From Eremomyces bilateralis CBS 781.70 (taxonomy: Eukaryota), in assembly GCA_010015585.1 (NCBI GenBank), contig ML975155.1: 64,000 bases of DNA; one strand, given 5' to 3'. A program made the translations under genes and the position numbers. A model generated the notes under the pieces. It saw nothing but the letters and a program-made list of their open reading frames with translations. It made no database searches and was not told the DNA's origin. The number at the start of each line of letters is the position of its first letter. Position 1 is the first letter of the stretch. Positions 10,585 through 64,000 of this stretch are shown here, one piece after another.

Positions 10585-10805
10585 TGGTCACGACTTCTGC
10601 ATTGTGGCGTTTGATGGGATAGTTCTGCTGCATTAGAATAGACTTGGCGTTTCTTGTCACGCAACGTTACACCATTGGGCTGGTATTGCTATCTATGGGT
10701 GGTGACAATATTAAGAGACGGACAAACAGGATTCGGTTGGGGTAGGGAGCGTATTATAGAACACCAGAAGACTTCATTTCATTGTCGAATAAAAACAGCG
10801 ATTGT

Positions 10806-33200: not shown

Positions 33201-34827
33201 GGCAGAAGTAGACACAGCTGGTGGCGAAGAAGAGGTGAACAAGCCTGAACCGGCGAAGGAATCAACAGGCAAAGACACAGAGAAAGAGCCTGAGGATGCA
33301 AAATCTCCTGACGCTCCGCTTGAAAGTCAAATCAAAGAAGCAGGAGTGAAAGCTGCCGTTCCCGTAGATGACACACCGCCACCACAAAACGAGTCACCCA
33401 AAACACCACCCAACGAATCCGCTGTTACCGACGACTCGGTATCTCCAAAGTCTCCTCCTTCACCAGTGGTAGAACCGAAAAGATCACGACGTCATTCACA
33501 CCATCATCACTCGAAAACATCTGAGAATCGACGGGACAGCCACACAAGTTCGAAAAGACGCGAGAAAGCAAGCTCCAGCAAAACTCGAGAGATGAAGCAC
33601 TCTGGCACCAAGCGGTCTTCTGAAAAAGACAACCGACACACATCGTCCCATCGTCGCCGCAGTGATGCTGCCGAAAGCCCTGAAGAGCGCGCTGAACGGC
33701 GTCGGCGCCGGGATGAACGTGCGAGACGCGATGCCGAGGAACAACAGAAAGCACAGGAGGAGCAAGAACGACTTCACCAAGAGCGGCGAGCAGCTCGAGA
33801 AGCTGCGACCAAAGAGCTAAAACATGACGAAGAGCGCCGGCGACGGCGACACGCCGAACGCAAAGAGCGGGAAGAGAAATCTAGGGTAGCAGAACGAGAG
33901 CGAGCCGCTGCAGAACAAGCGGACCGCCAACGAAGGAGGGAGGAACGACGGGCGAGGGAACATGCGAGACGCGCTGCGGAAGGCGATGCAGATTTCGTCT
34001 CCAAGGACGGGCCCTCTGAGGACACAGGATCGCCCCCGAAACTGTCACGCAGAAGCACGGGTGATGCACGTCCTCGTGAACGGAAACAGGACCCCAGCCC
34101 GGCTTTCGGTGGGCTCTTCAAGTCCAATACTGGTGGGTTCTTTGGGATGTTCTCATCGTCTGAGAAGAAGGAAAGGGAGCGAGCACGAGTGGCAAAGGCC
34201 GAAGTGGATCGCCGTGAACGACATCGACGACGAAGAGAATCAATGGCAGACAAAGGAGACGCGCCTCCGCAACCGGCCCCTGCAGAAGAAGGGACAAGAG
34301 ACGCTCCGAACGATGCAGCTCCAGATGATGCTCCAACGGAACCGGCTGCCCCTGACGCCCCACCAGCCCCCGAGCTTATCCCCGAAGAGCCTCAGGCAGC
34401 TCCGCCAACCGAGCCTGCCGCCCCAGACGAAGTACCACCGCCAAAAGACCAGTCTCCTCCCCGCCGTAGCAAGCGCCATTCGCACCAGGACACATCCGCA
34501 CGCCGCCGCCGCACTATATCCGACCGCGACCGACCGAAGAGCATGCGTGTCGATGGCCATAAGGACCGAGACCGGGACAGGCATCGAGAGCACACACATC
34601 GGCGCCGTGACAGATCGCACCGATCTGGCTCGGATAGGGATAGGGCTAAGGAAGATCAGGGGACGCGGGAACGGTCTCCGGAAGGGAGCGATCGGGCGAG
34701 GACGGGTGGGCGAGAACATGGGGAGGGGAGGAGGGAGAGGGTGAGGGAGCCACGGGAGCGGGTCAGGGAGAGAGAGACGAAGCGGAGTTCCGGGTTTTGG
34801 GGGAGTTTGAAGAAGATTATCCTTTGA
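27221..34827 (+). CDS. Very large (~2517 aa) low-complexity, probably disordered Pro/Glu/Ala-rich protein of unknown function
   Basis: 7.3-kb open frame. Probable first exon 27221-27443 joined in frame by a GT-AG intron at 27444-27496. No globular domain recognised. Confidence 0.8.
28511..28636 (+). repeat. Coding minisatellite, 7 x 18 bp (PAADPE-like hexapeptide)
   Basis: CCCGCTGCTGACCCTGAG-like units in tandem. Confidence 0.9.
28864..29007 (+). repeat. Coding minisatellite, 8 x 18 bp (PAKDPE-like hexapeptide)
   Basis: CCTGCCAAAGACCCAGAG-like units in tandem. Confidence 0.9.
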
Positions 34828-41142: not shown

Positions 41143-43854
41143 TTAATGAAAGCCAAATCTGGATTCCATGCCCCACTCTCCCATTCCACCATGGAAGTGA
41201 TGATGCCCCTCATGCAGCATCCCTGGATCTGAGATGGTGGCTTCGGGGGTCATCACGCCTGAGTGCAGCCCCTCGACTGAGTCACCCATGGTAGTATACG
41301 GCATGAACATATTTGGGGCAGGCGAGCTGCTATGTGTGTGATGGAGTGGAGTGCCGGCGCCCGACGGACCAGACATGCCGTCAAGCATATGGTGTGAAGG
41401 GATATCCTGTGGCATCGAGTCCGAACCGCTGGCGGCAGAGACGGCGGACTTCGTATCCCAAGACATGGTCACGGCAGGCATGCCGAGATCCATGGAGGAT
41501 GGGAACATGGTGTCGTCCATGGGCGGAAATTCGCCCATGTCCATGTCCCCGACCGCAGCGGCGAAGCGGGAGGATGGAGAAAGAGGGTTGGAAGTAAACG
41601 ATTGGGGAGGGTCGTAAGTAAAGGACTGGAGGCTGTTGGAGGCGGAATGCATGGATTTGCTGGAGGCAGGTCCACGGAACATGATATTCGACAGAGCCGG
41701 GGAGGTAGGGCAAGTGCTAGAAGGGCTAAAGTTGAAGCCGTTAGGTAGGCCAGCATCCATGTGAGGACCTTGGTATGTAAGGTCGGGGACATCGGAGATT
41801 CCAAGCATGTTGTTGGATTCGGAGCGGCTCGGAGTGTGAGGCTGGGAAGTTGTTCCGCTGCCAAGGCTAGAAGTAGGACTTGGCACCGATCGCGGCCCCC
41901 GACCCAGGTATTGCTCAAACCCGACGCGAGCAGTCTTGAGACGCTTCTTAACCGGGCGAAGGAGTCGAGCCGATGCGAGGATTTCATCCCTAGCAGTGTT
42001 GTGCAATCGTGCGGCGAGGGATCCCAGTCTTGCAGCGGAACCGAGCAGAACCCGGGAATCTTTCGATTTGCTATCGGTTGCAAGTCTGCTGCGGAAGAGC
42101 TCCAAAGCACGTCCGCACGAATCTAATGCCAAGATAAACACGTCGGGGAATGAGGAGCGTTGGCGTGTCGAGCCGGATCGGATCATATCTGATCGAGAAC
42201 CCTCCGAGACCTTGGCAAGAATCGCCAGAAGGTCGTCCGCTGACTCGAGGAAGCAATTGATGGTCCTGTCGTTGATTGTCTTGTCCTGGGTTGGATTCTT
42301 AGACGCGGTAGTGCTACCGCGGGGGAAGAGGAAGTGAATGAGAATCGTGTGGTGCACAGTCAAGAGAAGCGCTTGAGAGGCACTATCGTCGACTTCCCGT
42401 TTCAGAACCCTGATGCTGTCAATGAAGACGCCGCGAGCACTGCTGCAGATGCTAGCGAAATCGGGACTGTGGTGAAGAGAAACAAGGCGGCGGAATCCTT
42501 GAAGAGGTCGCTCTTGCCAAGAACCAGAAGGGAGGTCGTCTATGCCATTGGGGTCTTGGGGGTAAAGTGCGTAGACGTGAGCAATCGCAGCGGAAACATG
42601 GCTCAAAGGCCACATTTCACGAATAACGCGTCTTTGAATCTGCAGGGTGGATAGGTTGTCCGAAGCTTCGTCGAGCTTGATAAGACTCGAAGAGGAATCG
42701 TCCATGGGTAGGAAAAGTTGGGGGAGGAGTCCCGTCAGTAGGTGGGAGAAGTTATGGCCCAGCTGCATAAATGACCAAAGAGTGAGGGAGAAAATTGTCC
42801 ACCAGAGGAAGGATAGAAGCTCCCTCTCGACCTCCCGAACGTCGATACCGTTGATGAGACTAGGTTCGAGCTGACGATCCTTCAAGCCGACGAGCATTTT
42901 GCTTGCTAGTGTTACATAAGAAGTCGATCTGCGGATGCTGGAGAAGCACAGTTCGTGCCAGCCAAAGAGGGTGAGTGCCTGAGCAGTGGAGAAGCCGCAA
43001 TCAGAGAGCTTTCTGTCTTGAAGTTGGCGCTGAGCAAACCGGAGGAGTCTGTGGCCCCGTTCATGCGCCGTTGAGTGGTCGTGGGCGAAGCTGGCATCCG
43101 CCAGAATAACGGCAAGGAGGGCGTCATCTTGAGTTTTATTTCGGACATCGCGAAGAAGGAGGGTTTTTGACACCAGAATGGAGAGTGGGTGAGTCGAGAA
43201 CCACACCTCAATCAACTGAGTGATCCTACGGCTGTCGTATTCAGTGAGAGGGTTTGGCTCGGCCTCGAAATAATCGATCATGGTAGTGGTTTGGTCGTTC
43301 GCCAGTGAATCGACGCAAAGTTTCGCGCCACCAGTTTGGATATGCTGGCATCCCAACCCGCCAAACTTCGCAGCGATCATGCCAACCAGGTCTTGGGTGA
43401 GTAATGATAGCCAGCCATCATAACTCAGTGATCCGGGCTTGGATATCTCAGAGCGGCCGGCGCTCTCTGTGCTGGACTCAGAAGCCCTTCGGTTGAAGCT
43501 CTCCATTTTCTCCCAACAATTGTCTCCATAGATCTTCTCTAGCTCTTGGCCGATGGTATCTCCCCTTCCAGAAGCGCCCTCGGCGCCCAGTATCCCCTCA
43601 GCTCCATTTGTGAACTCGGCATGTGAGGTAGGTGGTGAGGGGAAGAGTGACTGTGTGACAGGACTACCGTGGGCGAAGGTTGGATCACGGTCACCCGAGG
43701 TGTTGCGGCGTGACCTCGTCTCTGAGACGTCGTAGATGCAATCTTGGTTTCGTTCCTTGCAGGCTTCACATATACTGCTACCAGAGCACTTGATCTTGCG
43801 AGCCCGGCAGAAATGGCAGCTTCGTCGAAGGTTCTGACGCGGGAATGAAGACAT
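41143..43854 (-). CDS. Zn(II)2Cys6 transcription factor with fungal-specific TF middle region (903 aa, single exon)
   Basis: RRSCHFCRARKIKC....ICEACKERNQDC immediately after the ATG at 43854; Ser/Pro/Met-rich C-terminal tail. Confidence 0.9.
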   Translation of the reverse strand: MSSFPRQNLRRSCHFCRARKIKCSGSSICEACKERNQDCIYDVSETRSRRNTSGDRDPTFAHGSPVTQSLFPSPPTSHAEFTNGAEGILGAEGASGRGDTIGQELEKIYGDNCWEKMESFNRRASESSTESAGRSEISKPGSLSYDGWLSLLTQDLVGMIAAKFGGLGCQHIQTGGAKLCVDSLANDQTTTMIDYFEAEPNPLTEYDSRRITQLIEVWFSTHPLSILVSKTLLLRDVRNKTQDDALLAVILADASFAHDHSTAHERGHRLLRFAQRQLQDRKLSDCGFSTAQALTLFGWHELCFSSIRRSTSYVTLASKMLVGLKDRQLEPSLINGIDVREVERELLSFLWWTIFSLTLWSFMQLGHNFSHLLTGLLPQLFLPMDDSSSSLIKLDEASDNLSTLQIQRRVIREMWPLSHVSAAIAHVYALYPQDPNGIDDLPSGSWQERPLQGFRRLVSLHHSPDFASICSSARGVFIDSIRVLKREVDDSASQALLLTVHHTILIHFLFPRGSTTASKNPTQDKTINDRTINCFLESADDLLAILAKVSEGSRSDMIRSGSTRQRSSFPDVFILALDSCGRALELFRSRLATDSKSKDSRVLLGSAARLGSLAARLHNTARDEILASARLLRPVKKRLKTARVGFEQYLGRGPRSVPSPTSSLGSGTTSQPHTPSRSESNNMLGISDVPDLTYQGPHMDAGLPNGFNFSPSSTCPTSPALSNIMFRGPASSKSMHSASNSLQSFTYDPPQSFTSNPLSPSSRFAAAVGDMDMGEFPPMDDTMFPSSMDLGMPAVTMSWDTKSAVSAASGSDSMPQDIPSHHMLDGMSGPSGAGTPLHHTHSSSPAPNMFMPYTTMGDSVEGLHSGVMTPEATISDPGMLHEGHHHFHGGMGEWGMESRFGFH

Positions 43855-45988
43855 TGTGAAAGAGATATAGGAAATAGACGACAGGGGAAAATAGTCTACG
43901 AAATGAACAAGGAACGGAAGGGCATCACTTGAGTTGAAAGGAAGTGAGGGGAAATCTTGGTCGAGGCGATGGTGCAAAATAAATAATTCGAGTGGGATGG
44001 AATGTTATACTTAAATTCCAAGAACTCAGGCAGCCAAGGCCGAAAATGGAAAGACGGAAGGTTAAAGACATCGTATGGAGACATACCTCAGCTTCTGACT
44101 CCGGTTACACTGGATCTGACGTTGGAGGGGGACTAAACGGCCAGCATTGGTACAGAATGCTCTACAATCCTTCGATGCACCTAAGCCGGCGGGATGGCCA
44201 AAAGGAGGAAAGCGGTAGGTATGCTACCGGGAGCGTCGGACGGACAGTTCAGATCTCAGGATGATGAGCGCAGCCTCGTGTGCAGAGGCGCAGGGTCCGA
44301 TATCAAAATCCAGAATGACGGTAAACGACGACGTGTGTATTACGCACGGCCCCGGGCAGACTGTGCAAAGAGCTTTCCTAGCCATTGTGTGGATGGATGT
44401 CCGTCATTCGGGATCCGACGTATCAGGCTAGCCTTACATCAACTGGAGTCTGGAGATCGGTGGCTGACAAGAGTTGAAAACCACGGACCCTGCGCAATTC
44501 TGATACATAGTACCATGCAGGAGAGTTAAAGGTAGCAACATATGATCATCAGGTGGAGGTTCGCTGTGTTGGAACTTGGACTAGGACACAGGGGACTCGG
44601 GCCATTAGGTCTAACCGTGGAGCAGGGAGCGGTATCCTAATTCCCATGCAGGTTTGCCAAGCCGAGATTCGGTGGGTAGGTCGAGGGAACAGTCGAACGG
44701 GACACAAGTGAATGCGATGATAATACGGACAAGGGAAGGGATCATCCTACATGAAGCAATATCTGAAGAGGTGGAGAGTACTGGTACAAGGAAAGCGACG
44801 AGGCGAAGTCGCTAGGCGAGGGTACTCGAGGGAGTGAAGATCGGAACGGTTGGTGTTGTTAGGGCGGGGAGGTTCCACTCGGCTCGGTCCAAACGGTATT
44901 AATAACTACTTACTTAATACTAGAACTGTTGGTGTCACAGTCCACAGACATCATGCTGTGAGAGGAAGAGGCCGAGTATTCGGTGGATGGAAAATGGAGA
45001 GAAATGGAAATGGAAGGATTGACGTTCATTGTTTGTCTGAGGTGAAAATGCCAAGACCCGAGGCACATGACATGGTGACATGCGCAATGGCAAGGCGGAC
45101 AAGACACTCGGCAATGGACATTCTACAGTGTCCCAACTGTCAACATGATTTATTATTAATTCCAGCTTGACGAATTGCACGGAATAACTCAAGCTCAACT
45201 CCTGCTTGCGGTACTGGGATGGTGATAATTACAGAATCTCTGCAGGGTGCAGGATGAGGTAATTACGGTAGAGTCACTAATGCCACTAATTAATTACCCC
45301 GAACGTGGCTGTGCCGACACTAAGGGCCCGTATTACCGTTTCAACCCGACTCATATTCCCCATCAATACAATCTATCTATTCTTATCAAATGCTTTCGTC
45401 TTTTCGGAATATATTCTACTTTGATACATGTCGGAATTGATGGAACGGGGAATTACAAGATGGAAGTCTTCAATCCCCTCACCCTGGCTCCCCCCGCAAT
45501 AGAATTGCCCATGACGTGCGCGGAGATATTCCCCGCTATCCCCAATCCGGATTCCCTCCGAACCTTCGTGAGGTGCAGGCAATCCGACCAAGGCAATCAA
45601 CGGTCTCGTCGATCAAAGCCGAATATGCTGTGTCCGAGTCCTTGGATCAAAAAACTCTTGGGTTGGGAAAATGAGATGTCACGAGCTGAGAGCCTTGGTG
45701 GTCGTCGTCACCGCTTCTAAGACATTGTCACACAGCTTCTAAACACACCGAATGTTCCCTGGTCACACTCGCAACGTGTTATAGCAGGTAGTATCATGCA
45801 TGAGGGATTTTGAAATTAATTGATTTAGTGATGTCCTCATCTTCATATGCGTATTAGTTGAAGTACAGCGGTACTCCGCCCACTAAAAATTCTAAGAATG
45901 CTAAGAACGCAGCTAAAAGCGATCGCTATTAACAGCAGCGGACCCCAGTCATAATTTCATAAATCCCCTTCGAGTATCGATCGACAAA

Positions 45989-47303
45989 TCACCATTTCAC
46001 GTCCGCGAGGCCAACTCGGAGCTTCTCAAAGTCAAAGATAAGGTATTTGTCCATCACGAACTGATCCCCGAAATTCCCGTCCGACATCTCCCCGTATCCC
46101 AAAGTCCGCACGTTGAGCACACACGTCGCCTCGTCGATGTTCTCGACGTAGTATTTGGCGGGAATTTCCCATACTTTGTCATGGCCGCTGAAGGCGTACT
46201 TGATCGGTGGCAGGGTGTCCCTCTTGTTGCAGTCGACGCTGAAGAACGACTGGTTGCCGTTGTTCGGGGGCCACTGAAGCGTGATCGGCTCCGCCTGAGC
46301 CAAATCGACCAGATAGGCGTAACCGTCGATGGAGAGGGGTGCTCCGCGGCCGAAGCTGGCATGGTCGAAGATTGCCGCGCCCCCGGTCGTCTTGTTGATG
46401 GCCACCGGCTCATCGCCGATGCTCATCTGGGAAATATCCAGGGTCCAGTAGTTAATCACCTTAGGCTCCCAGATGAAATTTTGGTAGTTGACCCAATCCC
46501 AGATGGTGATATCGTACCAATAAATCTTCTTATCCTGGATGAGATCGCGGCGGTAGCCTCCCATGGTTTGGATGGCGTCGTATCCGTGGCAGCCCTCCTT
46601 TTCGACATCCGGGCTGCCGTCATAGCAGTAGTGGAATGCTGTCAGGCCAGTTGCCCAGGCGCCGGACTTCCATTGCTGGTAGAAGGTAGATTGATAGTCG
46701 GCTGGATACAAGTCAGCCTTGTGGTCTGAGGATACGGGACGAGCACTAGTTCCACTTACGTTTATCACCCTCAAACACGGGTGACATTCCATATACTCCG
46801 GCAAACGGGAAAGCCATTGCAGTACTATCAAACGAGAAGTCCGAAGCCTCGAACACGACAGTCGAAGTAGCAGACCCGACTGTCGTGACTTCTGTTGCAT
46901 GCTCAACCCACATATCCTCGTAGAAGAAGAAATGGTTTGGGTTCCAGTTCATGCGAGGATATCTGTCGGTGACATTGCGGAAAGTCTTCGACTCGGTTTG
47001 ATTATAATATGGTTGATCGTGGTTCAAGCACGCCCAGGTATTTTCCTCGTCCCCCATACATTTGGTAGTGAGCGTGTACATCTGGACCCAAGTCCAGTCG
47101 TTGAACATGGGGATGGTCTGTGGAGGGTTTCCAATCGTGACGTTCAGTAGGTAACCCGCCCAGGGGTGCCGGTCATGGGGGACATCATAGACACCAGGCC
47201 TTGACATCGGAATTTGGTTCTTCGAGACGGCTTCCAACTCCTGGGCCAACGAGGGCACCGCCCGTAGGGCCAAAACCAAGGCAAGTGTCTTCAGAACACT
47301 CAT
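45989..47303 (-). CDS. Secreted pepsin-fold (peptidase A1-like) protein with atypical catalytic motifs
   Basis: Signal peptide, YLLNVTIGNPPQT, GVYGMSP and FGDQFV..KYLIFDFEKLRVGLA. DWTW and DHAS replace the two D(T/S)G motifs. Intron at 46702-46759; 418 aa. Confidence 0.82.
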
Positions 47304-48248
47304 GTTGAATGTGAATACACTGAAATGAGTGTTGATTAAAAGGCCGTAGCCAGGACAGTCACGATGGAGGACAATATTGTTCCAAATCTTGTCTTGATGA
47401 CCCGATCATTATGGGGACCTGTCTTGTCTTTTGAATTGCACCATAGCGGAAAATAGTCATCTCAGTCACACCCGATCCCCCGCAGTGAGGTGGAAGGACC
47501 ACTAACTCTTCCGTGAAACACCAGAAATCGAGTTGAAACAAAATCCGTCAGGGATCTTCGACAATACGGAACTCCGGCACACGGCGGCGAGTCTGATCGA
47601 AGTTCAAGTATAATTGCGTCCAGATGGTCTTTACCAGATTGGGATCTCCATTTGCCAACGGAACGAGACCTTTGACCAATCATCGGGGAGCGAAGTGCTA
47701 AGCTTTGGACCCTAGAAGCTATCATTGGCCAATTCTCTAGGGAATATTGAGCTAGGCTAAATCTGGACTAGTGGCTGCAACATGTATGTCAGCATGGTTG
47801 AGCCGCACTAGAAGCGCGACTGGAACAGACGCGATCACGATGCTTCTAGACCTGAGGCAAATGAGGTACATGAAACTGCTGTCAAACCCACTTCATCTGT
47901 CTATCAAACAGCTTCAGCCACCACCTGAAGCTCTCCCATGAGCATCAGCTTCCGCAAGGAGTAGGACTCCCTGAGGATGGAGGAGGCGTGTCGATGAGAG
48001 CAGCTGTTTTGCCATCATGAGCGCAGCTCCAGCATCAGGCCCACTGTATAACTGAGGACGAGTTATAATGATATGATACCCAAAGGTTCGCAAGCTCTGA
48101 GGCTTGTTCGTCGACAACAGTTTTCGAGGTCTGTTAATCTTAACGTCAACTCTCACGAGACCTCAACGCCTCTCACTGATCCAGCTGGTCCTGGGTTTAT
48201 TGAGCATACTTTCGTTATTTCGATCCAGCTTCTTGTTATATCCTACCA

Positions 48249-49130
48249 ATGGAAACCGTCCTCCATATTCAAGGAGATCCCTCCTCTCACCTAACTCCCC
48301 TATTCCTCGTCCACGCCGTCTCCGGTCTTGCCCTGCCCTACCTTCGTCTTGGGTCAGTGACTCGGGGAGAGGAGTTCCTTGACGCTGGTCGCCCCGTCTA
48401 CACCATCGGTTCTCCCATCTACAACACTAAGCAGTATCGCCTTCCCTCCAGCTTGGATGAGCTTGCTCGCCAGTATGTGGCCCTACTGAAGTACCAACAG
48501 CCCGAGGGCCCCTACCTCCTTGGCGGCTGGTCCATGGGCGGGATGGTAGCAATGAAGATGGCCGACGTACTCCTTTCCTACGGCGAGGAAGTCCTGAAAG
48601 TCATCATGTTGGATTCACCTAATCCGGAGGCCACCCCGGCATTCCGCAGTCACCGCGAGTTCGAGACCATGCTCGGGAACGCCTACGGTGCGGTTGCTCA
48701 GCGTCTGGGCGTCGATGCCACCATGGAGCCAGACTTCGACTCGTCTGAAGACGACGACGAAGATCTTTTCCTCCAAGGGGGCGAGCTTCTGTCAAGGCTG
48801 CACCATCACGTTTCAAACGGCCTGCGCATAATCGCCAATGTCAAGCTAGGGACCATGTTCACCTGCAAGCAAACTTACGACGCGGTCCTGATCAAGTGCA
48901 CCAAAGCTCCTGCACAGCTATCTACCACTGGAAGCACCCCGAACCTCAGCTACGAGCGCAAGCTTTTCCAGAAATTTTCCTTCCGCGAGAAGAACATGCT
49001 GTGGGACCCCCGCGTTTTCCGGAGCTTCAGGTCCATTCCGATCCACGCGGACCACGATGGCATTCTCGATGACATGGCGGCGCCAGAGTTGACCAGAATC
49101 TTGCAATCTGTGCTGGAACAAACCGGTTGA
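48249..49130 (+). CDS. Free-standing thioesterase (PKS/NRPS TE-domain type alpha/beta hydrolase)
   Basis: PLFLVHAVSG, QPEGPYLLGGWSMGG (GxSxG), MLDS and DHDG (Ser-Asp-His triad candidates). Confidence 0.88.
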   Translation: METVLHIQGDPSSHLTPLFLVHAVSGLALPYLRLGSVTRGEEFLDAGRPVYTIGSPIYNTKQYRLPSSLDELARQYVALLKYQQPEGPYLLGGWSMGGMVAMKMADVLLSYGEEVLKVIMLDSPNPEATPAFRSHREFETMLGNAYGAVAQRLGVDATMEPDFDSSEDDDEDLFLQGGELLSRLHHHVSNGLRIIANVKLGTMFTCKQTYDAVLIKCTKAPAQLSTTGSTPNLSYERKLFQKFSFREKNMLWDPRVFRSFRSIPIHADHDGILDDMAAPELTRILQSVLEQTG

Positions 49131-50282: not shown

Positions 50283-52195
50283 ATGACGCCTTCTAAGGGT
50301 CGCTTTTCTTTTCTCTTACCACTTACGTGCTTGATTGGCTCCGTGGCTGCGGCGCCACTGGAAGAGTTCGTGACCAGACAGAGTAACCTGCTGGCCTGTG
50401 TTCGCTCTGTTTTTGGAAACACTTCAGATGCTCGAATAGTCGGACCCACGGATCCTACCTTTACAGATGCGAGACTCGGCGAGAAGATCCAGTATGAATT
50501 AGAGAACGAACTCGACAGGAATGAGCGGAAGCTAACTTTTGGATAGATTCGATGAATTCCCCTCGTTGATTGTTTTCGCCGAAGATGTTTCCGAGGTCCC
50601 TGCTCTTGTCAATTGCGCTCAGAAATCAGGAATTCGTGCCGTTCCCCGGACCGGCGGTCACCAGTAAGTCTAGTCTTTCTTTTCTCTCGACAATGGGATC
50701 TGGATTATGCGGTGGTATTGATGCCTGAATACTAAACCCCAGGTTTGGGGGCTCAGAGTGAGGGGTCAATATAATACCTATTTCAGCCCACTACTTCCAT
50801 CTCGTATCAAGATAGCGAAACCTGACATTCGAACAGCTTTGAAGCCTACTCCACGTTGACAGATACAATGACTATTGACATCAGTCACATTAACTACGTA
50901 CAAGTTTCCGAAGATCGAAACACTGCCGTTGTCGGAGCCGGAATTCGACTCGGTGCGCTTTATAACGTCCTCTGGAAACACGAAAGGTCGTTCAATGGCG
51001 GCATTTGTCCAACAGTCGGTCTATCCGGCTTCTTGTCTAGTGGAGGATTCAGCAATCAAATGCGCGACATGGGACTCGGGATCGACTACATTCAATCCGC
51101 CAAGGTTGTCCTTGCAAATGGCCAGCTTGTCACCGCTTCAGCTTCCGAAAACCCGGACCTGTTCTGGGCAGTCAAGGGCGGCGGTGGCGGTACGTATGGA
51201 ATTGTTGTGGAGTACGTCCTGGAGGTCCTGGAGTATCCGCGATCTAGCATGGTTCTGATCAACTGGAACGAGACCGATACCAATACGGTTCGCTATGATG
51301 TTGCGAAGCGATTCCTGGATTGGGCACCAAGGCAAGATCGCCGATTCACTTCCCAGGTCAACGTCTATGGCACAACTGTCCAGGTCGTTGGGCAGTTCCT
51401 CAATGCCACTGGCGAGGAACTGACCGCGCTGATCAATGATTCGGGACTCCTCACCATCGGGAAACCAGAGCCGATTATTGACGGTGGCTGCAATCAACTC
51501 AATTCCCGTCTCTTCGGATATACCACGTTCGACTGCCAAGCTGATAACGAGGTCGACCCTCTCATTACCAACGTGGTTCCTCAAGCCTTCGAACCAGTCG
51601 GCAACTACCCTCGGTTCGGGTATAATGATGTTCCAGCGGACCCTGCTGCTCCAGTGGCTCCAGCCTGGCCACGCTTCTGGCGTATTGCCAAGTCATTCAT
51701 CGTCCAAAAGGACAACCTCCTTCCAGATGACGCACTGAGGAATGTCATTGACCGGATTGCTCAGCTCCCGCCGGAAGCTAGCGCTTGGGGAGAGTGGCAT
51801 GCGTGGAACTTGTCCTCCACGGCAGATGGAAGCGATGCCTTCGCCTGGAGAGATCAAGCATATGCCCATCTCGAGTTCCAGATCCGTGGCTCCGACGATA
51901 TGGACGTACAGAACGGATATCATGACTGGATGGCTGATTTGGAAGGCTACCTCCGGCCTATAGTTGGGTAAGGCTGAGCACCCGAATTTGTAACAGATCC
52001 AAGACTAATGTCCCTCGCAGTCCGGCTTCATACACTGGCTACGCCGACTCCAAGATCTCAGTGAATCCATTGGAATCCTACTTCGGCAACAACGTTTGCA
52101 AGCTCATTAATGTCAAGAACCAATATGATCCAGGCAACTTCTTCCAAAATCCGGCTAGCATTCCAGTGCGTGCGGAGAATGGGTTGACGTGCTAG
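50283..52195 (+). CDS. Secreted FAD-linked oxidase, berberine-bridge-enzyme-like
   Basis: Signal peptide, RTGGH (His for covalent FAD), GGICPTVG (Cys for bicovalent FAD), NPDLFWAVKGGGGGTYGIV and C-terminal YFGNN..KL..VK..YDP.NFF. Introns at 50492-50546, 50664-50836 and 51968-52020. Confidence 0.9.
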
Positions 52196-53489: not shown

Positions 53490-54727
53490 TCAGAATAGCT
53501 CCTGCATCGAGCTACTTAGTCTGTCGGTAGACTCTTTCAAGGACGCTTTGAACTCTCCGCGGACAAATGTTGTCAGTGCGCCGGAGATGTGGCTGCCGTG
53601 CATCCGTTGGCGGGAGTAGACGTCAACAAAACGATCCACAAGGCTACCCATGCGCTTTAATTGGCGTAGGATGAGTTGCATCTTGATGCTCTCCTCATCC
53701 TCTTCGTCGAGGCGATAGGATCCTAGTGTAAAGGCGGCATCCATGTCTCCCTGGTTAAAGAGCGACTCTTGAGATGACCCGGATACGGAAGAGGAAGAAG
53801 AACACGAGGAGCTCCGTTGAGCTGTAACGGTGCGATAGGTTCGCAGAACCTTGGATATTATTAATGACAGGAGGAGAGCCAGCTCCGGGTCTGCCGAGCA
53901 TTCGCAGTCCACCAACTGAGATATGGCATCGATGGCTTTGCGATTGCGGTCCAGAATCCGATCCGCGCTCAGCGTAGATTGGGCCAACTCCGCAACACCA
54001 TAGAGGTTTTGCAGAGCAGTGATGCCGAGGTTCATGCAATCATGGTCCTTCGAGCATCGTTCGGGCAACTCTGTTGTCGGAATGACGTCGGGGAATGGCT
54101 TGAAGCCGTCGTCGAAGCTCTCATCAGAGAGAGGTGGTGTTGGGAAGTCGTCCATGGGACCCATTCCAGAATGGACCGACGCGGCAGAACCATCGAAATC
54201 GAGGTACATATCCATGAGATACCGATCAGGAATTGCCATGGGCGGTGGTGGAAACATGCCCATTGAAGTCTGCGGGGAGAGGTGCAGATCTTCTGGCGGG
54301 AAGAACAGCGGCTGTTGAGGGTTCATTGTGTGATCACCAAAACCGCTCACGTGCATCAACTCTGAGGGGCCGTTAGCTCTGCCCTCGCTATATATTTCTG
54401 TTTTTCTATGGGGGGTGGCTTACCAGGTGTGCAACTGCCGTAACTGCTGTCTTGGCGAACGAAGCCGTCTGTGAGGCCCTGCTGTTGCAGGGCGGCCTTT
54501 CTTTTGGATGCTGGCGGCTTTCCTATCCTCCGAGAAGGGCTGTAGTTGCACGGAAGCTTGAGGCTGGAGCAACGAAGGCAACTAGGCCTCTCCTTTCCGC
54601 ACTTGACCTTTCGTTTGGAGCAAAGGTCGCAGGAGTCCTTGACCTTTCGGCGAGGTGGTTTGCCGTTGGCCCGAATGGGCTTGTCAATGGGAATTGATTG
54701 GCCTTCTGATGATGTTGGAGCAGACAT
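53490..54727 (-). CDS. AflR-like Zn(II)2Cys6 pathway-specific transcription factor
   Basis: KVKDSCDLCSKRKVKCGKERPSCLRC...PC.YSPSRR.G, and an AflR-type C-terminal region (NRKAI..I..LVDCECS...ALLL.LII.KVL..Y; LGSYRLD). Intron at 54362-54423. Confidence 0.88.
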
Positions 54728-56972
54728 TATGGAAGAAATCTAGCCTAGAGGATATGCACGAGAGACTGGCTGCTCAATCCCACTTATAGGTGCGCTGGTG
54801 AAAGGCAGTGGACAAGTCGCATTTTCTATCTCCCAGGTTCGTATCACTCTAAGGTGGTACCGTCTTCGGCCAGGTTGTCTTCCGTGACAATTCCTGGAAT
54901 TCACGGATGGCACGAGGAAGCAAAGCGGACGGATATGGAAATTCTCGTGTCGAGCCTGCGGACCTGGCTCGTGCTGATTTGCTGGAGGTGGAGGGTGGAG
55001 AGGGAGTGTATCCACCGGGTTGGTTAGGAAGCACAACCGCATTTCAACGGATCCGTCATGGATGGGCCCATCTGATCGTTGGTCAAGCTACAGGGTATGG
55101 GGCAGGACATGGCGACATACTGCAGGACACACTGTCTAGAGTCGTCAATGATTGCAGGGACCGCTAAAACGGTCCATCGTGGGGGGCAGTGCGAATCGGA
55201 CAGCCACTTCTACTCCATTCGAGGTCTGGTCCATAGTGAGGGGTATGGCCTGGCCGGTCCGATGTTGGTGTTGGACCCGTCGGTGAAATGGTGGGGCGCC
55301 TGATGCTACAGTCCTGGGAATATGATTTCCCAAAGGTACAGCATGCTATTCCCTACAGCATGCTAGCCTCGCTACCAAATTCCATAGCGGCTGATAGCAA
55401 TGTGCGACGCGAGCAAATCAGCATCTCTCACCGCGTTAGAGACTACTGCAATATTGCGGATGGCTTATGCTATGGACGGATAGATCGATGGTGGCACTCT
55501 TATTAGCACGCCAAGTGCAAGGCTCTCTGGGCGCCCGTTGGCTTTGGTGGGAAGCAACATCATTCGCTTAATCGCTTGACATCAATGGCTTGGCGATCAT
55601 GCCAGGATTAGGGTCCTGACGATGTTGATCCTCCAGCCCTCTTGCACTCGAACCGAGCCTCTATCGAGAAACAATTGCCAGCATTACCATTTGGTCTTTC
55701 TCCACTGAGAATCTTGCCGACATGATGTGCTTCTATAAGCATATCTTCGGTTATTTGGTTCATGCTTCCCAAGCCCTAGCCGGCGCAGAGACGAGTCCCG
55801 GACACACCCCAGGCTTCCGAACCTCTCCCTCTAGTCCATTGTTTACCAGAATTTCGGTGAATGAAACCGAAAATCCGTTTTCCTCCCCCGGAATCGAAAA
55901 AACTCTGAAACCTTAGCTTTTAGAAAACTCTGAAGCCACTCCGTCTGTGGGAGGCAAATGCACCAGCCTTACGCGCACGACGCCGACAAAACACCTATTC
56001 TGGTCCGGATCAGCCCTACGCAACTGAAGGTGCAGCGTCATACCCCGTGGGGACTTTGACCACGATACTCTCGGTATCGAAGCATTGTGAGGGTCGGTAG
56101 AAGATTCCATTGCATGAGACATTATGTGGTTGGACCACGGATCTCTCAGCTATTCCAGTCCCACCAGTCAGCTCCGAGTAATTCTCGGAGACATGAGACG
56201 ACATCTCATCGTATCGATGGCTTGCTGACTTTTGCTTCTTTACAGCCAGCTGCAAAGGATCGGTCGGTTGGATGCTCGACTAGTTGGACGAGTTGACTAC
56301 TGCGAGTTCTCTATCTGACAATTTTCGTCCTCGTTGTACCGTTAGAGACTTCATTAAAGAACCCCTTACCTAACTTTCTGGTGGGTTTGCAGACCGTCGG
56401 AGCAGAACCTTAATGGGAATGATCGTCTTTCCAAATTTACACCGGCGACTAAGCCCTCGACCCCAGAGCCCTGCCTAGACTCCATACAATACGGCGATTT
56501 CTGGGGAAGGCGCGTGGTCGGCCCGACCGTCTTTGATTCAGTGCTGTTACGGTAAATACGACACTTCGCGTTAGATCGTGATGATATCTATTTTCAGAGT
56601 GGCATCCTTGTAACGTTCCACCAAACCGAAAGGGCCATTGAACGTCTTCCTTTGTGTTGTACCAAGACGTGACTGGCAGACCGCCTCGAATCTCTCTACG
56701 ACGAGCGCAATAGCGGAGGGTGGGCAGTCATCTTCGCAGTTCATACGGCACGAGGACACATTGGACAGGATTGCGGTGTGACAGAACTCCTTTGTACGCC
56801 TCTTGCACTATCGCTCGGTTAACCCAAATACATCGAAGGTCCACCACTAAAAGGCACCTATATACCAAAACAACAAAGATTGGAGATTACTAAGTACAGT
56901 ACTTCCGCTATCTCGCGTTCTGCGACACCGTCCATCCCAGGATCACAATCCTTTATTGGATGACAATAGAAA

Positions 56973-58346
56973 TTACCACAACTCAGCCAATACGGACTCA
57001 GCATTATATCCATAAATCCATTGAGAATTCATGGTCGGCCCCATCCACTTCAACAGCGCCCAGATCACCCATTCCTTGATGGACTGTTGGATAACCGATT
57101 TGCTGGTCTTCCGAAGGTTTCCATTCTTCGTATTGAAGTCTTGGATCTTCTGGAGACGTGTGATTCGGTGCTGCTCCCAGCTCCGAACCGTCTGGTCACG
57201 AAGTTCCTGGTCGAAACTCGAATCATAAAGACGGGAGAAGAGGTATCCAAGTGTCTCCGCATCCTCGAGCGAGGTTGCGCCACCTTGACCGCCCTGTATG
57301 CTCGATTAGCAACTGTTCCGGTTCGCGGTCAGAGCCTGTATGACGGAAACATACCGATGGCGGCATTGCGTGGGCAGCATCACCAATTACGATGACGCGC
57401 TTCAATGGAGAAGTCCAGTTGGTTCCAGGGGAAACTTGGTAAAACCTGTGTGACTTAGTATTAGTGGCGGTGTGAGACCCGGAACATTGAACACTTACGG
57501 CCAGTTGGTCAGAGATTCCGGAGCGGCACGCTCGCACAGCGCCTTCACGATTGGGGGCCATCGTGAACTGCTCGTCAAAAACCGCTCTTTCACCATCTTG
57601 GAAAGAGTGGCCTTGTCCGCATCGAACGCAACCCATTCTTCCTTGGACTTTTCCTCCGTCTCAAATGTGGCGAAGTAGCTGATGCTCTTACCGGCGCTCG
57701 ATGCAGGCATGATTGCGAAGGAGCCGGTGGCACCGAACAGGAAACACGGCAGATGCAGCCCTTGCAGGTCCACATCGGCGAGGTCGCTCATCTCGAACGT
57801 ACCGGAGATTCCGGTCAGGCCCTGAAACTCGGGCTTCGCGTGTGGCCGGACGAAGGGGCGGACCTTGGAGTGGATGCCGTCGCAACCAACAACGTAGTCC
57901 GCCGTAACGGTTTCTCCGTCCTCGAACTCGATGGTTGCGCTGGAGTCGTCCTCGCTCGTAACGCCGACGCATTTCTTCTCATAGTAGATCTCAACCCCGA
58001 CGCGGCGGCACTGTTTTATCAGTGCGTCGCGCAGCTCCGAGCGCTGGATTCGCAGAGCAGGGAAGTTATAGATCTTGTAACTGCCGTTGTAAACCCGGGC
58101 AAGCTCGACGCCTTGGCCGTTGGTGAAGGCCACGGTCTCAAACGCATAGCCAATGTTGCGAACTTGGTCATAGACACCGGCGTGGTCGAGTACTCGAAGA
58201 GCATTAGGAGAGAGGGCGATATTGCCGCCTGCGGCAAAGTCTTTTGCTTCCCGATCGTAGATCACGCAACTGATCCCATGCTTCTGAAGACTGAGCGCAA
58301 GCGTGGCACCAGCCAAGCCTCCACCACAGATTGCGACTTGGACCAT
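56973..58346 (-). CDS. FAD-dependent monooxygenase (group A flavoprotein hydroxylase)
   Basis: VAICGGGLAG, VGCDGIHS and IGDAAHAMPPS|GGQGG...LED. Introns at 57446-57498 and 57294-57354. Confidence 0.9.
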
Positions 58347-58494
58347 TTTCGCGCAAATGGATAATTATTCAGTAAGTGTTGAAAGAAGGAAATGCAAGTG
58401 AAATTGGAAGGAAATGCGCTATTGCGGCCAAATTGGTGAGTATCGCGATATGTTTATGCCATGGTCGAAGTGATATATACAATCATGTCCCGTT

Positions 58495-59395: not shown

Positions 59396-62300
59396 ATGTC
59401 TTCCCAATCTTCAGCGGCTTCTTCTCAAGCCTCGCTTCAAAATACCATGAACCCCGACCCATCAGTTATTATTGGCATGGCTTGTCGTGTGCCTGGCGCG
59501 ACAACCCCCAGTAAGCTATGGGACAACATCGCTGAGAGGAGAGACCTCCAATCGAAGATGCCCGCCGATCGATTCAATGTCGATGCCTTTTTCCATCCCA
59601 ATGGAGCCCATAAGGGAACAGTCAGTATTGCCTACACCATAGACCTGACACAGCTACTGATCTTCACCAGATGAACGCCCGATATGGCTACTTCCTTGAA
59701 CAAGATCTCGGCATGTTCGATGCCGGTTTCTTTGGTATCTCTGGCAAAGAAGCCGAAGCCATGGATCCCCAGCAACGATTGCTTCTAGAGGTGGTGTACG
59801 AGGCATTGGAGAATGCTGGCATCACTCTGGATGAAATCAGTGGTTCCTTGACTTCGGTCTTCTGCGGCAGCTTTACCAACGACTACATGGCAACGACCGT
59901 CAAGGATCTTGAATACTACCCCCAATACTCGGTCACCGGAACCGGAAATTCCATTTTGAGCAATCGTATTTCTTATTTCTATAACCTTCATGGAGCGAGC
60001 GTCACGTGCGACACCGCATGTTCCTCTTCCCTCATTGCCCTCCACTGGGGCAATGGCACTCTTCAAAATCGAGAGGCCGACATTTCCATCGTCGTCGGCT
60101 CCGCCCTTCATTACGACATGAACATCTACCAGATGATGACGGACCTGAGCATGCTCAGCACCGACGGGCGCTCTCGTGCGTTTGATAACGGTGCGAGCGG
60201 CTATGTCCGTGGTGAAGGCATTTGCGCGACGGTGCTCAAGCGCCGGAGCGACGCGGTTGCCAGCGGCGATTCCATTCGTGCCATCGTGCGGGGCACCATG
60301 GCTAATCACGATGGTCGCAAGGCGGGCATTACCCTTCCCAATCCGATAGCGCAGGAACAGCTCATTCGGCATACCTATAAAATCGCTGGGCTGGACCCTG
60401 CAGACACCCAATATTTCGAAGCTCACGGTACCGGTACCAAGGCTGGTGACCCCCGTGAGACCTCTGCTATCGGAGCGGTCTTCGCTCCTAGCAGAGAAGA
60501 GCCTCTCTATGTTGGCTCCGTCAAGACCAATGTCGGCCATCTTGAGGGTGCTTCCGGCCTTGCCGGTATCATCAAGACTGTTATGGGACTTGAGAAGCGC
60601 AAGATCCCACCGAACATGCTCTTCAAGAACCCCAACCCGGAAATCAAGTTCGACGAGTGGAAGATCCGGGTGCCAACTTCAATGGTCGATTGGCCGGAGA
60701 AGAACGGTGTCCGCCGTGCTTCTATCAATTCGTTCGGCTACGGTGGTACAAACGCACACGTCATCCTGGAAGCTTACACGGAACCCGAAACCACCATTCC
60801 TCGTCAGATCTTGCCTGGAGCTCTGGCGTCTATGGTGGCTAGCCGTCCATATCTCATCCCGCTTACCTCCCACATTGAGAAAGCCGGCAAGCTCCATATC
60901 TCCGCTCTCACGGAATATCTTGATGCGCGCGAAGATGCCAACGTCGCCGATCTCGCATTCTCGCTCAGCAGCCGCCGCACCATGCACCCCTTCCGCTCAT
61001 TCGCGATTGGACACGACCGAGCATCAGTTACCAGCGATATGACCAACCCTCAACCCCTTGCCAAGTGGACGGCTGCCGAGTCTGGCCGAACCAGAATTGG
61101 TATGGTCTTCACCGGCCAGGGTGCTCAGCACTTTGCGATGGGCCGTGAACTCATCCAGAAGTCTCCGCTCTTCAAGCAGTCTCTCGAGAAGTGTGATACT
61201 GTCCTCCAAAGCCTGCCAGATGCGCCCAAGTGGTTAGTCATTGAGGAAATGACCAAGTCCAAGGAGGATTCCCGCGTCACCCAGACTGAATTCTCTCAGC
61301 CTCTGTGTACTGCTCTTCAGTTGGCTATCGTGGACCTCCTCAATTCTTGGGGCATCAAGCCGGCCGCCACCGTTGGACATTCATCCGGCGAAATGGCCGC
61401 GGCTTATGCTGCTGGTATCCTCACCTTTGAAGGTGCCATCATTGCTGCCTACTACCGTGGCCTCTACATGTCCAATACCTCTGCCAACACTGTTAAAGTT
61501 TCTGGTGGAATGATGGCTATCGGCCTGACCGAACCCCAGGCCAAGGCTGAACTGCAAGCGTTTGAGGGTCGCCTTGCCATTGCAGCAATCAACTCCCCTT
61601 CCAGCATCACCATTTCTGGTGATGAGGATGCCATCCTGGAACTCAAGAACACTCTTGTTGAACGCAAAGTCTTCGCTCGCCAGCTCCAGGTCGCTCAGGC
61701 TTTCCACTCTCACCACATGTTCCCGCTTGCCCCCGCTTACGAACGGGCATTGAACTCCTGCCCGCAATTTAAGCCGCAGCCCCCGACTTGCCGAATGTTT
61801 TCGTCTGTCACTGCTCGCTTGGCGGATTACACCCAAATGGGTGCGGCTTACTGGGCAGCAAACATGACTGGGACTGTCCGATTCTACGAAGCCTTGACTG
61901 GCATCTTGCTTAATGACAACGATGAGCAAAACGTCGATATCCTTCTCGAGATCGGAGCTCATGCTGCTCTCAAGGGTCCCTCTCGCCAGGGTGTCACCTC
62001 CTTGAAGCTGGATCTGCCATACCTCGGATCCCTCACTCGTGGTGTGCCGGACTATACTAGCCTTCTCCAATGCGCTGGCCAACTCTTCTCGCTCGGCTAT
62101 CCAGTGGACCTGGTTGCAGTCAACAAGGATCAGTACCTTTCTGATGGTGCTGTGGTCCAAGCAGACACCGGCAAGAAGCAGACCGACTTGCCAACCTACT
62201 CCTGGGACCACAACCGCTACTGGTGCGAAACTCGCTTCACCAAGGGACATCGCCTCCGACCATACCGCCATACCATCCTGGGTAGCCCCATCACCGGGTC

Positions 62301-64000
62301 CATTGATAACCGCCCTCGCTGGAGGAACTTCCTTCGCCCTGGCGAGATCCCGTGGCTCAATGAGCACGTTGTTGATGGCAAGATCATCTTCCCTGGTGCT
62401 GGCTACATCAGCATGGCCATCGAAGGTGCCCTTCGGTTGAAAGGCGGTGTTGAGAGCGTGAAGGCTATCCGCATGAAGGACATTATGGTCAAGTCTGCCC
62501 TAATCGTTAGCACTGCTGACATGGGTACCGAAGTCCTCCTTGAGATGAAGCCGGTCACTACGTCTGCGAAGAGTCGATCTGCTGAATGGTACGAATTCGG
62601 TGTCTATTCCTATGATGAGAATGAGCGCTGCTCTGAGCACTGCCATGGTCTCATTGCCGTTGATAAGGGCGCCGCCGCTCCAATTGCGCCGATCAAGAAT
62701 TATCCGGCGCTTGACGCTTTGCGTCTCGAGAGCAACCGCAGCCAGATGCCAAGTTCCTTCTATGCTCATTTGAATGACCTCGGATTGCAGTATGGTGAGA
62801 ACTTCCGTCTTGTCTCCGGCAATGTTGAGAGCGGCCCTGGATACGCTTATGGGCCCATCACCTACGATCCAACCGCTGTCCTCTCAGCAGAGGAGTTCGA
62901 CAAGACTGTTTTGCATCCATCGCTCCTCGATTCCACTTTCCACGTGATCTTTAGTGCGATCGAGAGCCGTTTGGGACGTGCTTTGGATGAGGCATACGTT
63001 CCGTCCTTCATCCGCAGCCTTGACATTTCTGGCTCCTTCGTCGACTCTGTCAGCGACCGCAGCACACAGGAGTTCAATATAGTCTCCTTCACTGAGCTGC
63101 CGACCCACCGCGTCGCCGTCAGCGACCTGGTTCTGACCCAGGGCGACCATCTCGCCCTTGAAATGCAAGGCCTTGAGGTCACTGCTTTGGGCACTGGTGT
63201 CAACGATGGCCAGGAGGGCCGCTCGCTGTTCTTCCGCCAACGCTGGCAGCCGTCCTTCGACTCACTCACCTCGTCTATAAACACTCCTTCTTTGCGATCT
63301 CTTGCCAGCGTCGTGGATGTTTTCGTGCACCAGCACCCTGACACTCGCATCTTGACCTTCTCCGCCAACTCCGAGCGCGTCACCGAAGTCCTCAAGTACC
63401 TTGGCACTGCTGCGCATGAGAGGCGACGATTCAAGTGCCTTGACATCGCTCAGTCATCTGCCAACGGTGATGCTGCGAAGTACGAAGAGATCAAAAACAA
63501 GAGCGGCGGCCTAGTTGATATCCGTGAGCCGAATACTGAAGAGCTTTACGACCTCGTCATTATCAGCGACGGGTCTGGTGTTGACCCGCTCCCGCATATG
63601 AAAGATAACGCTGTCGTCATCTACGATGGCGCCAACTTGCCGACCAACCCTGACCTCGAACAAGTCTTCTATAAGGACGGAATCCTTTCCGCTTACAGGC
63701 GCCCTCGCACTGCCGTGGCTCCTGGAGACTTGACTGTCATTGTGTCGTCCCTTCTCAGCAAGCGCGTTAGCTCGATCATCTCCGCCATAAAGACTAGCGC
63801 TCCAGCATCTGTCAACACCATGACCTTCGCTGAACTGTCCAAGAGCTCTCAGCCAATCACTAAGGATGCCATTGTCCTCTCCAGCTTCGATGAGGGCATT
63901 GACGACGCTGATACATTCGCTGGAATCAAGAAACTCCTGGGTGAGGTTCAGAAAAACGTCGTCTGGGTCACCGAAGGTGCGGTTATGGAGTCCTCCAATC
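59396..64000 (+). CDS. Highly reducing iterative type I polyketide synthase (KS-AT-DH-pseudoMT-...), 3' end outside window
   Basis: Intron at 59621-59670, then an open frame to the window end. [62 protein letters not shown]. Degenerate MT-like segment near 63330. Confidence 0.95.

Follow-up and report, generated by a model that had tools for sequence, protein, structure and literature searches.

A 64,000-nucleotide stretch of contig ML975155.1 of Eremomyces bilateralis CBS 781.70 (assembly GCA_010015585.1), hereafter the window, carries on its minus strand, at 45989..47303, a gene for a pepsin-like protein in which the catalytic motifs of aspartic proteases are replaced by DWTW and DHAS. The gene adds a fairly divergent new member to the PynH/PytH family and lies in an uncharacterised variant of a biosynthetic gene cluster. 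We consider it likely that its product is an "aspartic protease-like" pepsin-fold enzyme of the kind found in fungal PKS-NRPS (polyketide synthase-nonribosomal peptide synthetase) clusters of the tetramic acid and pyrano[2,3-c]pyrrole type, which serves the pathway rather than acting as a protease and dehydrates an intermediate of its own cluster. As judged from the analyses below, the protein is thus most likely a small-molecule dehydratase, not a protease.

Membership of the PynH/PytH family

A word-indexed search for longer proteins, using exon 2 of the gene, returned 23 relatives of 414-499 aa that were 44-57% identical, and D-W-T-W and F-D-H-A-S were among the near-invariant columns of their alignment. 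When a profile was searched against 1.84 billion representative proteins, 402 matches were obtained at E<=1e-3 and 43 at E<=1e-30, with ordinary DTGS/DTGT proteases entering only from about 1e-10. A pattern search over 78 sequences (P0003-P0080), many of which are fragments, located the N-lobe motif in 57 relatives, 56 of them with DWTW and one with DITW, while DHAS was present in 30 of the 34 relatives in which the C-lobe motif was located, the exceptions being DYAS, DEGS (twice) and DQDK. Both Asp residues are retained in all full-length sequences aligned, i.e., 23 clade members, the window protein and five proteins of a sister clade. Judged from these alignments, the conservation of the motifs is far beyond chance. 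An earlier note on this DNA, made from the sequence alone, had read the two motifs as a rewritten catalytic site, and the homologs bear this out, as they keep DWTW and DHAS and not the canonical DTG.

Two of the relatives lead to named proteins. By exact-sequence cluster look-up, the 90% cluster of P0014 includes An11g00310 of Aspergillus niger, "Aspartic protease-like protein pynH", and that of P0019 includes ATEG_00917 of Aspergillus terreus, "Aspartic protease-like protein pytH". After splicing, the window protein shares 46.7% identity with PynH (P0186) across 377 aa (E 9e-129) and 45.2% with PytH (P0178) across 396 aa (E 6e-121). In a maximum-likelihood tree of 34 rows (25 clade members, five sister-clade proteins, three canonical proteases and the window protein, with fragments and near-duplicates excluded), the window protein was placed inside a 26-row PynH/PytH clade (support 81/90), apart from the sister clade (99/98) and from the canonical A1 proteases (100/100). 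Its closest relatives in the tree are about 50-52% identical (maximum 52%) and include proteins of Teloschistaceae lichen fungi. The window protein also carries the signature (F/L)xDWTW together with FDHAS(Y/F)GRG, which was derived from these alignments and not from a published definition, as FNDWTW and FDHASFGRG; PynH and PytH carry DWTW and FDHASYGRG.

The sister clade (P0037, P0040, P0059, P0064, and P0070) consists of pepsin-fold proteins that are 24-29% identical to the window protein and that keep DWTW but have DEGS or DQDK as the second motif. One of them comes from Aspergillus tanneri, where it is encoded on the same 5.6-Mb contig as the PynH-like gene of that species.

Gene model, catalytic positions and fold

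The gene and the features of its product are as follows:

45989..47303, minus strand: PynH-like gene from ATG to stop, two exons, spliced product of 418 aa with no internal stop
47303-47301, minus strand: start ATG
46760..47303, minus strand: exon 1, residues 1-181 and the first base of codon 182, N-lobe
46702..46759, minus strand: intron of 58 nt, GTAAGT...CAG, phase 1, with a CTGAC branch-like site
45992..46701, minus strand: exon 2, residues 182-418, C-lobe, with the Pfam PF00026 match
45991-45989, minus strand: stop codon
47088..47099, minus strand: DWTW, residues 69-72, at the place of the first catalytic D-T-G-S motif, Asp codon 47097-47099
46920..46946, minus strand: WNPNHFFFY, residues 120-128, aromatic segment at the position of the canonical flap Y-G-x-G
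46355..46366, minus strand: DHAS, residues 294-297, at the place of the second catalytic D-T-G-T motif, Asp codon 46364-46366

The frame is open through both exons, the splice signals are canonical and every residue invariant in the family is retained. The intron is further backed by homology, since two intron-less relatives from metagenome contigs (L003, open reading frame (ORF) 9899-11209, and L008, ORF 3-1310) are continuous across the junction. Exon 1 encodes a signal-like N-terminus (approximately residues 1-21), Cys82, Cys92 and three N-x-S/T sites, and the protein as a whole has six Cys residues, which are conserved, and five N-x-S/T sites; a hydrophobic N-terminus was seen in 23 of the 23 full-length relatives aligned. 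As DWTW and DHAS are signatures of the family, they do not mark the gene as decayed.

The Pfam model "Asp" (PF00026) matched the C-terminal exon only, with E 8.8e-8 and a score of 32.4 bits (cut-off 19.9). No Pfam family was obtained for exon 1 at E<=1, and the N-lobe is therefore very divergent. Nonetheless a profile of the relatives found 55 aspartic protease sequences of the PDB at E<=1e-3 (best E 4.5e-10), and in this alignment the Asp of DWTW falls on the Asp of the canonical FDTGS, in agreement with a MAFFT alignment that included canonical A1 proteins. In the latter alignment the Asp of DHAS falls on the Asp of DTGT. The D-T/S-G-T/S catalytic motif is accordingly absent from both lobes of the window protein, DWTW and DHAS filling its columns. 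Likewise, the Tyr75-Gly76 feature of the A1 flap is missing: in the MAFFT alignment, which is approximate in this loop, F-F-F-Y aligns to the canonical YG(T/S)G block, with W-N-P-N-H inserted before it. Approximately 48 residues separate the signal-like segment (about 21 aa) from Asp69, and in a predicted structure of a relative the first strand begins 29 residues ahead of the Asp; compared with the lengths of canonical pepsinogen propeptides, this short spacer and early strand mean that a pepsinogen-type propeptide does not fit. In all these respects the description given in the earlier note agrees with our results: both Asp codons lie exactly where it had put them, the ORF is intact with a clean intron (418 aa without a stop, canonical splice signals, invariant residues retained), the aromatic WNPNHFFFY falls on the columns of the flap it was said to replace, and there is little room for a propeptide.

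The structure just mentioned was predicted with AlphaFold from a 106-row alignment for P0003, the closest full-length relative, and not for the window protein. The model (mean predicted local distance difference test score 92.8, predicted template modelling score 0.88) has a pepsin fold, as the earlier note had assumed from the scaffold at both ends of the window protein: Foldseek against the PDB retrieved renin, saccharopepsin, pepsin and cathepsin D with E-values down to 3e-25, template modelling scores of 0.78-0.83 normalised by target, and 18-20% identity. Neither this search nor the PDB sequence searches found a solved structure closer than the ordinary proteases, and the PynH family thus seems to be without an experimental structure in the PDB copy searched. 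The top PDB sequence matches for exon 2 were chains of the Plasmodium histo-aspartic protease (HAP; E 1.9e-5), which cover only the generic C-terminal lobe.

The biosynthetic cluster in the window

The pepsin-like gene shares a cluster with a PKS-NRPS gene of the PynA/PytA type, 12 kb away, and with a thioesterase gene that stands head-to-head with it across 945 bp. The thioesterase, an oxidase, a regulator and a flavin monooxygenase gene stand between the pepsin-like gene and the PKS-NRPS gene:

41146..44004, minus strand: Zn2Cys6/fungal-specific transcription factor, kept beside the module in related loci
47304..48248, no strand assigned: divergent intergenic region of 945 bp, shared with the thioesterase gene
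48249..49130, plus strand: stand-alone thioesterase of 293 aa with PF00975, PynI-like in position and role
50283..52195, plus strand: BBE-like FAD oxidase, 543 aa, FAD_binding_4 and BBE domains, three introns, signal-like N-terminus, fitting the role of PynB
53493..54739, minus strand: AflR-type Zn2Cys6 regulator, with an intron at 54362-54423 in RNA-like contigs
57226..58364, minus strand: FAD_binding_3 flavin monooxygenase, 3' end approximate
59396..64000, plus strand: 5' part of the hybrid PKS-NRPS gene, start approximate, continuing past the end of the window

The full product of the PKS gene, taken from the same contig (P0201), has 3885 aa, and its domains are KS, AT, DH, ER-like, KR, ACP, C, A, T and R; the presence of condensation, adenylation, carrier and reductase domains makes the enzyme a hybrid PKS-NRPS. 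Over the first 1462 aa it shares 55% identity with the representative of the sequence cluster that includes PynA and 50% with that of the sequence cluster that includes PytA. PynI was absent by name among the 120 best thioesterase matches listed; the likeness of the window thioesterase to PynI is one of position and domain type only, and we call it PynI-like.

The three introns of the oxidase gene were defined by contigs from one sequencing run that we take to be RNA. Contigs of this RNA-like run show eight splice-like joints in the neighbouring genes (BBE-like oxidase, regulator, monooxygenase, and PKS-NRPS). Contig depth in this run cannot rank genes, so that it says nothing on the expression of the pepsin-like gene.

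Two further observations concern the cluster. The AflR-type site TCGN5CGA is not enriched in the window (20 matches against 21.4 expected). The gap between the regulator and the monooxygenase (54424-57292) is covered by RNA-like contigs with a 153-nt GT..AG joint at 56092-56244 and holds no ORF of at least 70 aa with a Pfam match; long untranslated regions or a gene of the cluster that is not annotated could account for it.

Conservation of the gene neighbourhood in other fungi

A scan of Joint Genome Institute metagenome contigs gave ten loci, of which L004, L005, and L006 have identical figures, as do L008 and L009, leaving seven distinct loci. In all three loci with long flanks (L003, L004, and L007) a PF00975 thioesterase gene is divergent from and adjacent to the pepsin-like gene, and the BBE-like oxidase and a Zn2Cys6 factor are present as well. 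Identities of the window proteins to their counterparts in these loci are 40-44% for the thioesterase, 52-58% for the oxidase and 32-42% for the Zn2Cys6 factor encoded at 41146..44004. A module of regulator, pepsin-like protein, thioesterase and BBE-like oxidase thus recurs in three independent metagenome contigs. Additional genes encode a cytochrome P450, a major facilitator superfamily transporter and a flavin monooxygenase in L003 and L004, and an ATP-binding cassette transporter and an NAD(P)H-binding protein in L007; L008 and L010, which are short, have a flavin monooxygenase gene after the pepsin-like gene.

In named fungi, linkage was judged from locus tags or accession numbers that place a family member a few genes from a PKS-NRPS or thioesterase gene:

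Aspergillus niger: CAK48264 and CAK48258
Aspergillus terreus: ..001315 and ..001318, PytH three genes from the PKS-NRPS PytA
Xylaria arbuscula: g1381 and g1377
Ophiocordyceps australis: 5410 and 5404
Trichophyton soudanense: H105_08631 and H105_08627, with a PynA-like PKS-NRPS at a distance of four genes
Gyalolechia gomerana: 006427 and 006428
Colletotrichum jinshuiense: 000412 and 000413

The family member of A. brasiliensis likewise lies within a few genes of a PKS-NRPS or thioesterase gene, and in several other species the genes are on contigs of equal length. In many fungi the homologs thus have thioesterase, oxidase and PKS-NRPS genes as neighbours, in line with the view of the earlier note that the protein serves a biosynthetic cluster.

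Among the dermatophytes, a cluster of sequences from Trichophyton, Microsporum, and Arthroderma (P0027) has DWTW and DHAS and the public name "probable secreted aspartic protease" (ARB_07536). In a 2025 paper, ARB_07536 and the "LovB-like" PKS gene next to it, ARB_07534, are listed as up-regulated together, ARB_07536 strongly so, in a secondary-metabolism cluster, "cluster B". The protease label on the dermatophyte family members is probably misleading. It does, however, raise the question of whether the window protein could be an ordinary secreted acid protease whose place in the cluster is incidental. The pepsin fold, the signal-like N-terminus and the conserved disulfide cysteines would suit such a protein, as would the labels that members of the family bear in databases, among them "acid protease" and "probable secreted aspartic protease ARB_07536". 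On the other hand, neither lobe has D-T/S-G, the flap Tyr-Gly and the propeptide are missing, the family is sharply set apart from DTG proteases in the profile search, and linkage to thioesterase and PKS-NRPS genes is conserved across many fungi, which together make an ordinary protease highly improbable.

Function and proposed mechanism

Reviews that cite Yamamoto et al. (2015) describe PynH as the enzyme that removes water from pyranonigrin H, at its serine-derived (hydroxymethyl) side chain, and so forms the C-7 exo-methylene of pyranonigrin E; a pynH knockout, they report, yielded a new pyranonigrin, with accumulation of the hydrated precursor. No PynH-like gene is listed for the glycine-type clusters of pyranonigrin A and pyranoviolin, which fits a role tied to a hydroxylated side chain. 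Papers on olumilide and on PKS-NRPS phylogeny do not mention a protease-like gene. Seen against this chemistry, the central idea of the earlier note, a non-proteolytic, repurposed pepsin fold serving the cluster, stands, being carried by the motifs of the homologs, the cluster linkage and the reported biosynthetic role of PynH. The activities it suggested (hydrolase, cyclase, binding or resistance protein) give way to the reported activity of the family, dehydration to an exo-methylene, and the implied novelty has to be dropped, since the name and the description of the family date from 2015 (Yamamoto et al., 2015, as cited in reviews).

The window protein would perform a beta-elimination of water on the intermediate of its own cluster, equivalent to the reaction of PynH. 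In pepsin a water molecule is flanked by two carboxylates that serve as an acid/base pair, and the retained Asp pair, with the invariant His beside the second Asp, would be suited to an elimination of the E1cB type (through the conjugate base). One Asp carboxylate could act as the base that takes the acidic ring C-H proton next to the lactam, while the other Asp, or the neighbouring invariant His, could be the acid that protonates the leaving side-chain hydroxyl. The Thr and Gly of the protease motifs are small and allow the approach of a peptide backbone; their replacement by Trp/Thr/Trp and His/Ala/Ser, together with the aromatic flap, favours a flat hydrophobic ligand over a peptide, and the Trp-rich motif and the flap may form a pocket for a planar heterocycle. 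Since the window protein and the BBE-like oxidase have signal-like N-termini, conserved disulfide cysteines and sequons, the last steps may be secretory or extracellular, with the window protein acting in the secretory pathway or outside the cell and the oxidase probably likewise.

The hydrated precursor reported in reviews to accumulate in the pynH knockout also bears on a different reading, namely that the window protein is an inert pepsin-fold binder which, in the manner of the plant TAXI inhibitors, binds or shields a metabolite or a partner enzyme. Non-catalytic A1 homologs do exist, in both motifs the Thr of the fireman's grip and the Gly are replaced, and there is a weak match to TAXi_C (E 1.6e-4). 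This match, which like that to HAP is confined to the generic C-terminal lobe, remains below the cut-off, however (22.0 against 23.9 bits), with no match to TAXi_N, and the conservation of both Asp residues in the 23 clade members, the window protein and the five sister-clade proteins is not expected of an inert binder. Together with the knockout phenotype this makes an inert binder very unlikely, and a dehydratase of the PynH type is preferred.

A more far-reaching reading is that proteins of the PynH type may be lyases with a pepsin fold that are secreted and run the acid/base chemistry of the proteases in reverse, the Asp pair and the His eliminating water. They and the BBE-like oxidase, which also bears a signal, would be parts of a conserved late "exocyclic alkene" module (regulator, PynH, PynI, and PynB) at work in the secretory pathway. 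The module occurs from Eurotiales and dermatophytes to Xylariales, Colletotrichum and the lichen-forming Teloschistaceae. In the window this module would serve a PKS-NRPS with a deviant adenylation pocket and so lead to a new, possibly non-serine, pyrano-pyrrole or tetramic-acid product. We regard this wider picture as possible rather than probable, with clearly less confidence than the assignment of the window protein to a dehydrating pathway enzyme.

Evidence weighing against a PynH-type dehydratase

Several results count against the assignment. The window cluster does not simply repeat that of pyn: in 44-59.7 kb no gene for a P450, an N-methyltransferase or an NAD-binding reductase turned up, although the cluster may extend past 64000, and the window flavin monooxygenase is just 23-27% identical to those of the related loci. 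In the tree the window protein forms its own branch without a well-supported partner. Moreover, of the ten positions that we take to determine the specificity of the adenylation domain, P0201 agrees with PynA at seven, and at two it stands alone among 14 synthetases in having T and L; V and T occupy these two positions in 11 of the 13 relatives (PynA, PytA, and nine others), and the pyranonigrin-A-type pair have other residues. The roles of the Asp and His residues, the pocket and the secretory location are, furthermore, what we infer and not what was observed. Finally, no splice joint was seen at 46702-46759 in the one RNA-like run, which cannot be read as silence of the gene.

This last point is the one in favour of a gene that is decaying or not expressed. 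Since both exons are in frame, the splice signals are canonical and the family-invariant residues are kept, we find decay or silence the least credible of the alternatives.

Because of the T/L difference in the pocket, the amino acid loaded, and with it the side chain of the substrate, may not be serine. The window protein could thus belong to the same family and yet perform another reaction or use another substrate, such as a non-serine side chain (e.g., an ethylidene formed from a threonine-type residue), or catalyse a hydration, ring opening or ring closure. This would agree with the deviation of the pocket from all 13 relatives, with the missing pyn-type P450 and methyltransferase genes in the part of the cluster seen, with the separate branch of a protein at most 52% identical to any relative, and with the sister clade, whose DWTW combined with DEGS or DQDK indicates that the family does diversify. 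Nevertheless, every signature residue of the PynH/PytH clade is kept, the module of thioesterase, pepsin-like protein and BBE-like oxidase is the same as in the relatives, and adenylation specificity codes of fungi are poor predictors. We therefore judge a different reaction or substrate unlikely, though it is the strongest of the rival explanations, and retain the dehydration of a PynH-like intermediate as the preferred assignment.

Significance

In public databases the family mostly goes under names that mark it as proteolytic ("acid protease", "eukaryotic aspartyl protease", "probable secreted aspartic protease"), and members from dermatophytes and plant pathogens could be miscounted as proteolytic virulence factors. 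DWTW and DHAS together with linkage to thioesterase and PKS-NRPS genes provide a simple rule for relabelling such proteins as biosynthetic enzymes. The gene is also a marker of clusters that are likely to make pyrano-pyrrole or tetramic-acid compounds bearing an exo-methylene. How a dehydration would be carried out on a pepsin scaffold is a question for enzymology, the best PDB matches being ordinary proteases at 18-20% identity.

Other features of the window

On the plus strand, 27487-34827 is an open frame of 2446 codons, rich in Pro (15.5%), Glu (15.4%), and Ala (13.7%), with its first Met at codon 655 and a C-terminal tail rich in Arg, Asp, and Glu. It had no Pfam match even at E<=1 and looks like either a very long disordered protein or a compositional artefact. 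Two adjoining ORFs at 14983-16204 (plus strand) each match the actin Pfam model and are probably one ordinary actin-family gene interrupted by an intron. The remaining features are:

977-1570: HET-domain ORF
1846-4149, plus strand: hAT transposase remnant
4695-6401, minus strand: pogo/Tc5-type transposase remnant with DDE_1 and HTH_Tnp_Tc5
6802-7677, minus strand: DDE_3 transposase remnant

Comparison with known systems

The closest described system is PynH of the pyranonigrin E (pyn) cluster of A. niger. The window protein belongs to the same clade and shares the DWTW and FDHAS(Y/F)GRG motifs and the six conserved Cys residues, and its gene is likewise clustered with those for a PKS-NRPS, a thioesterase, a FAD oxidoreductase, a flavin monooxygenase and a regulator. 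It departs from PynH at the residue ahead of the first Asp (N, where PynH has V) and at the one that follows DHAS (F, where PynH has Y). At the level of the cluster, the P450 (PynD), the N-methyltransferase (PynC) and the NAD-binding protein (PynE) of pyn were not found in the part seen in the window, an additional AflR-type regulator is present, and the adenylation pocket differs at the two positions discussed above. PytH of the pyranterreone (pyt) cluster of A. terreus shares the same motifs at 45.2% identity over 396 aa, but is placed in a separate, well-supported Aspergillus sub-branch.

With pepsin, renin, cathepsin D and saccharopepsin (MEROPS A1, PF00026) the window protein shares the bilobal fold, as modelled for P0003, an Asp at both catalytic positions, Cys pairs at the positions of the first and last disulfides of pepsin, and the hydrophobic-Gly motifs of the psi-loops. 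In contrast to these proteases, to which it is 18-23% identical, it has D-W-T-W and D-H-A-S in place of the catalytic motifs, a remodelled flap and no propeptide, and its family is reported to act on a small molecule. An A1 scaffold with changed catalytic motifs is also known from the TAXI xylanase inhibitors and from Plasmodium HAP; the TAXI proteins act as inhibitors, and HAP has remained a protease, with His in place of the first Asp. Unlike the PynH family, neither has DWTW and DHAS or is encoded in a PKS-NRPS cluster.

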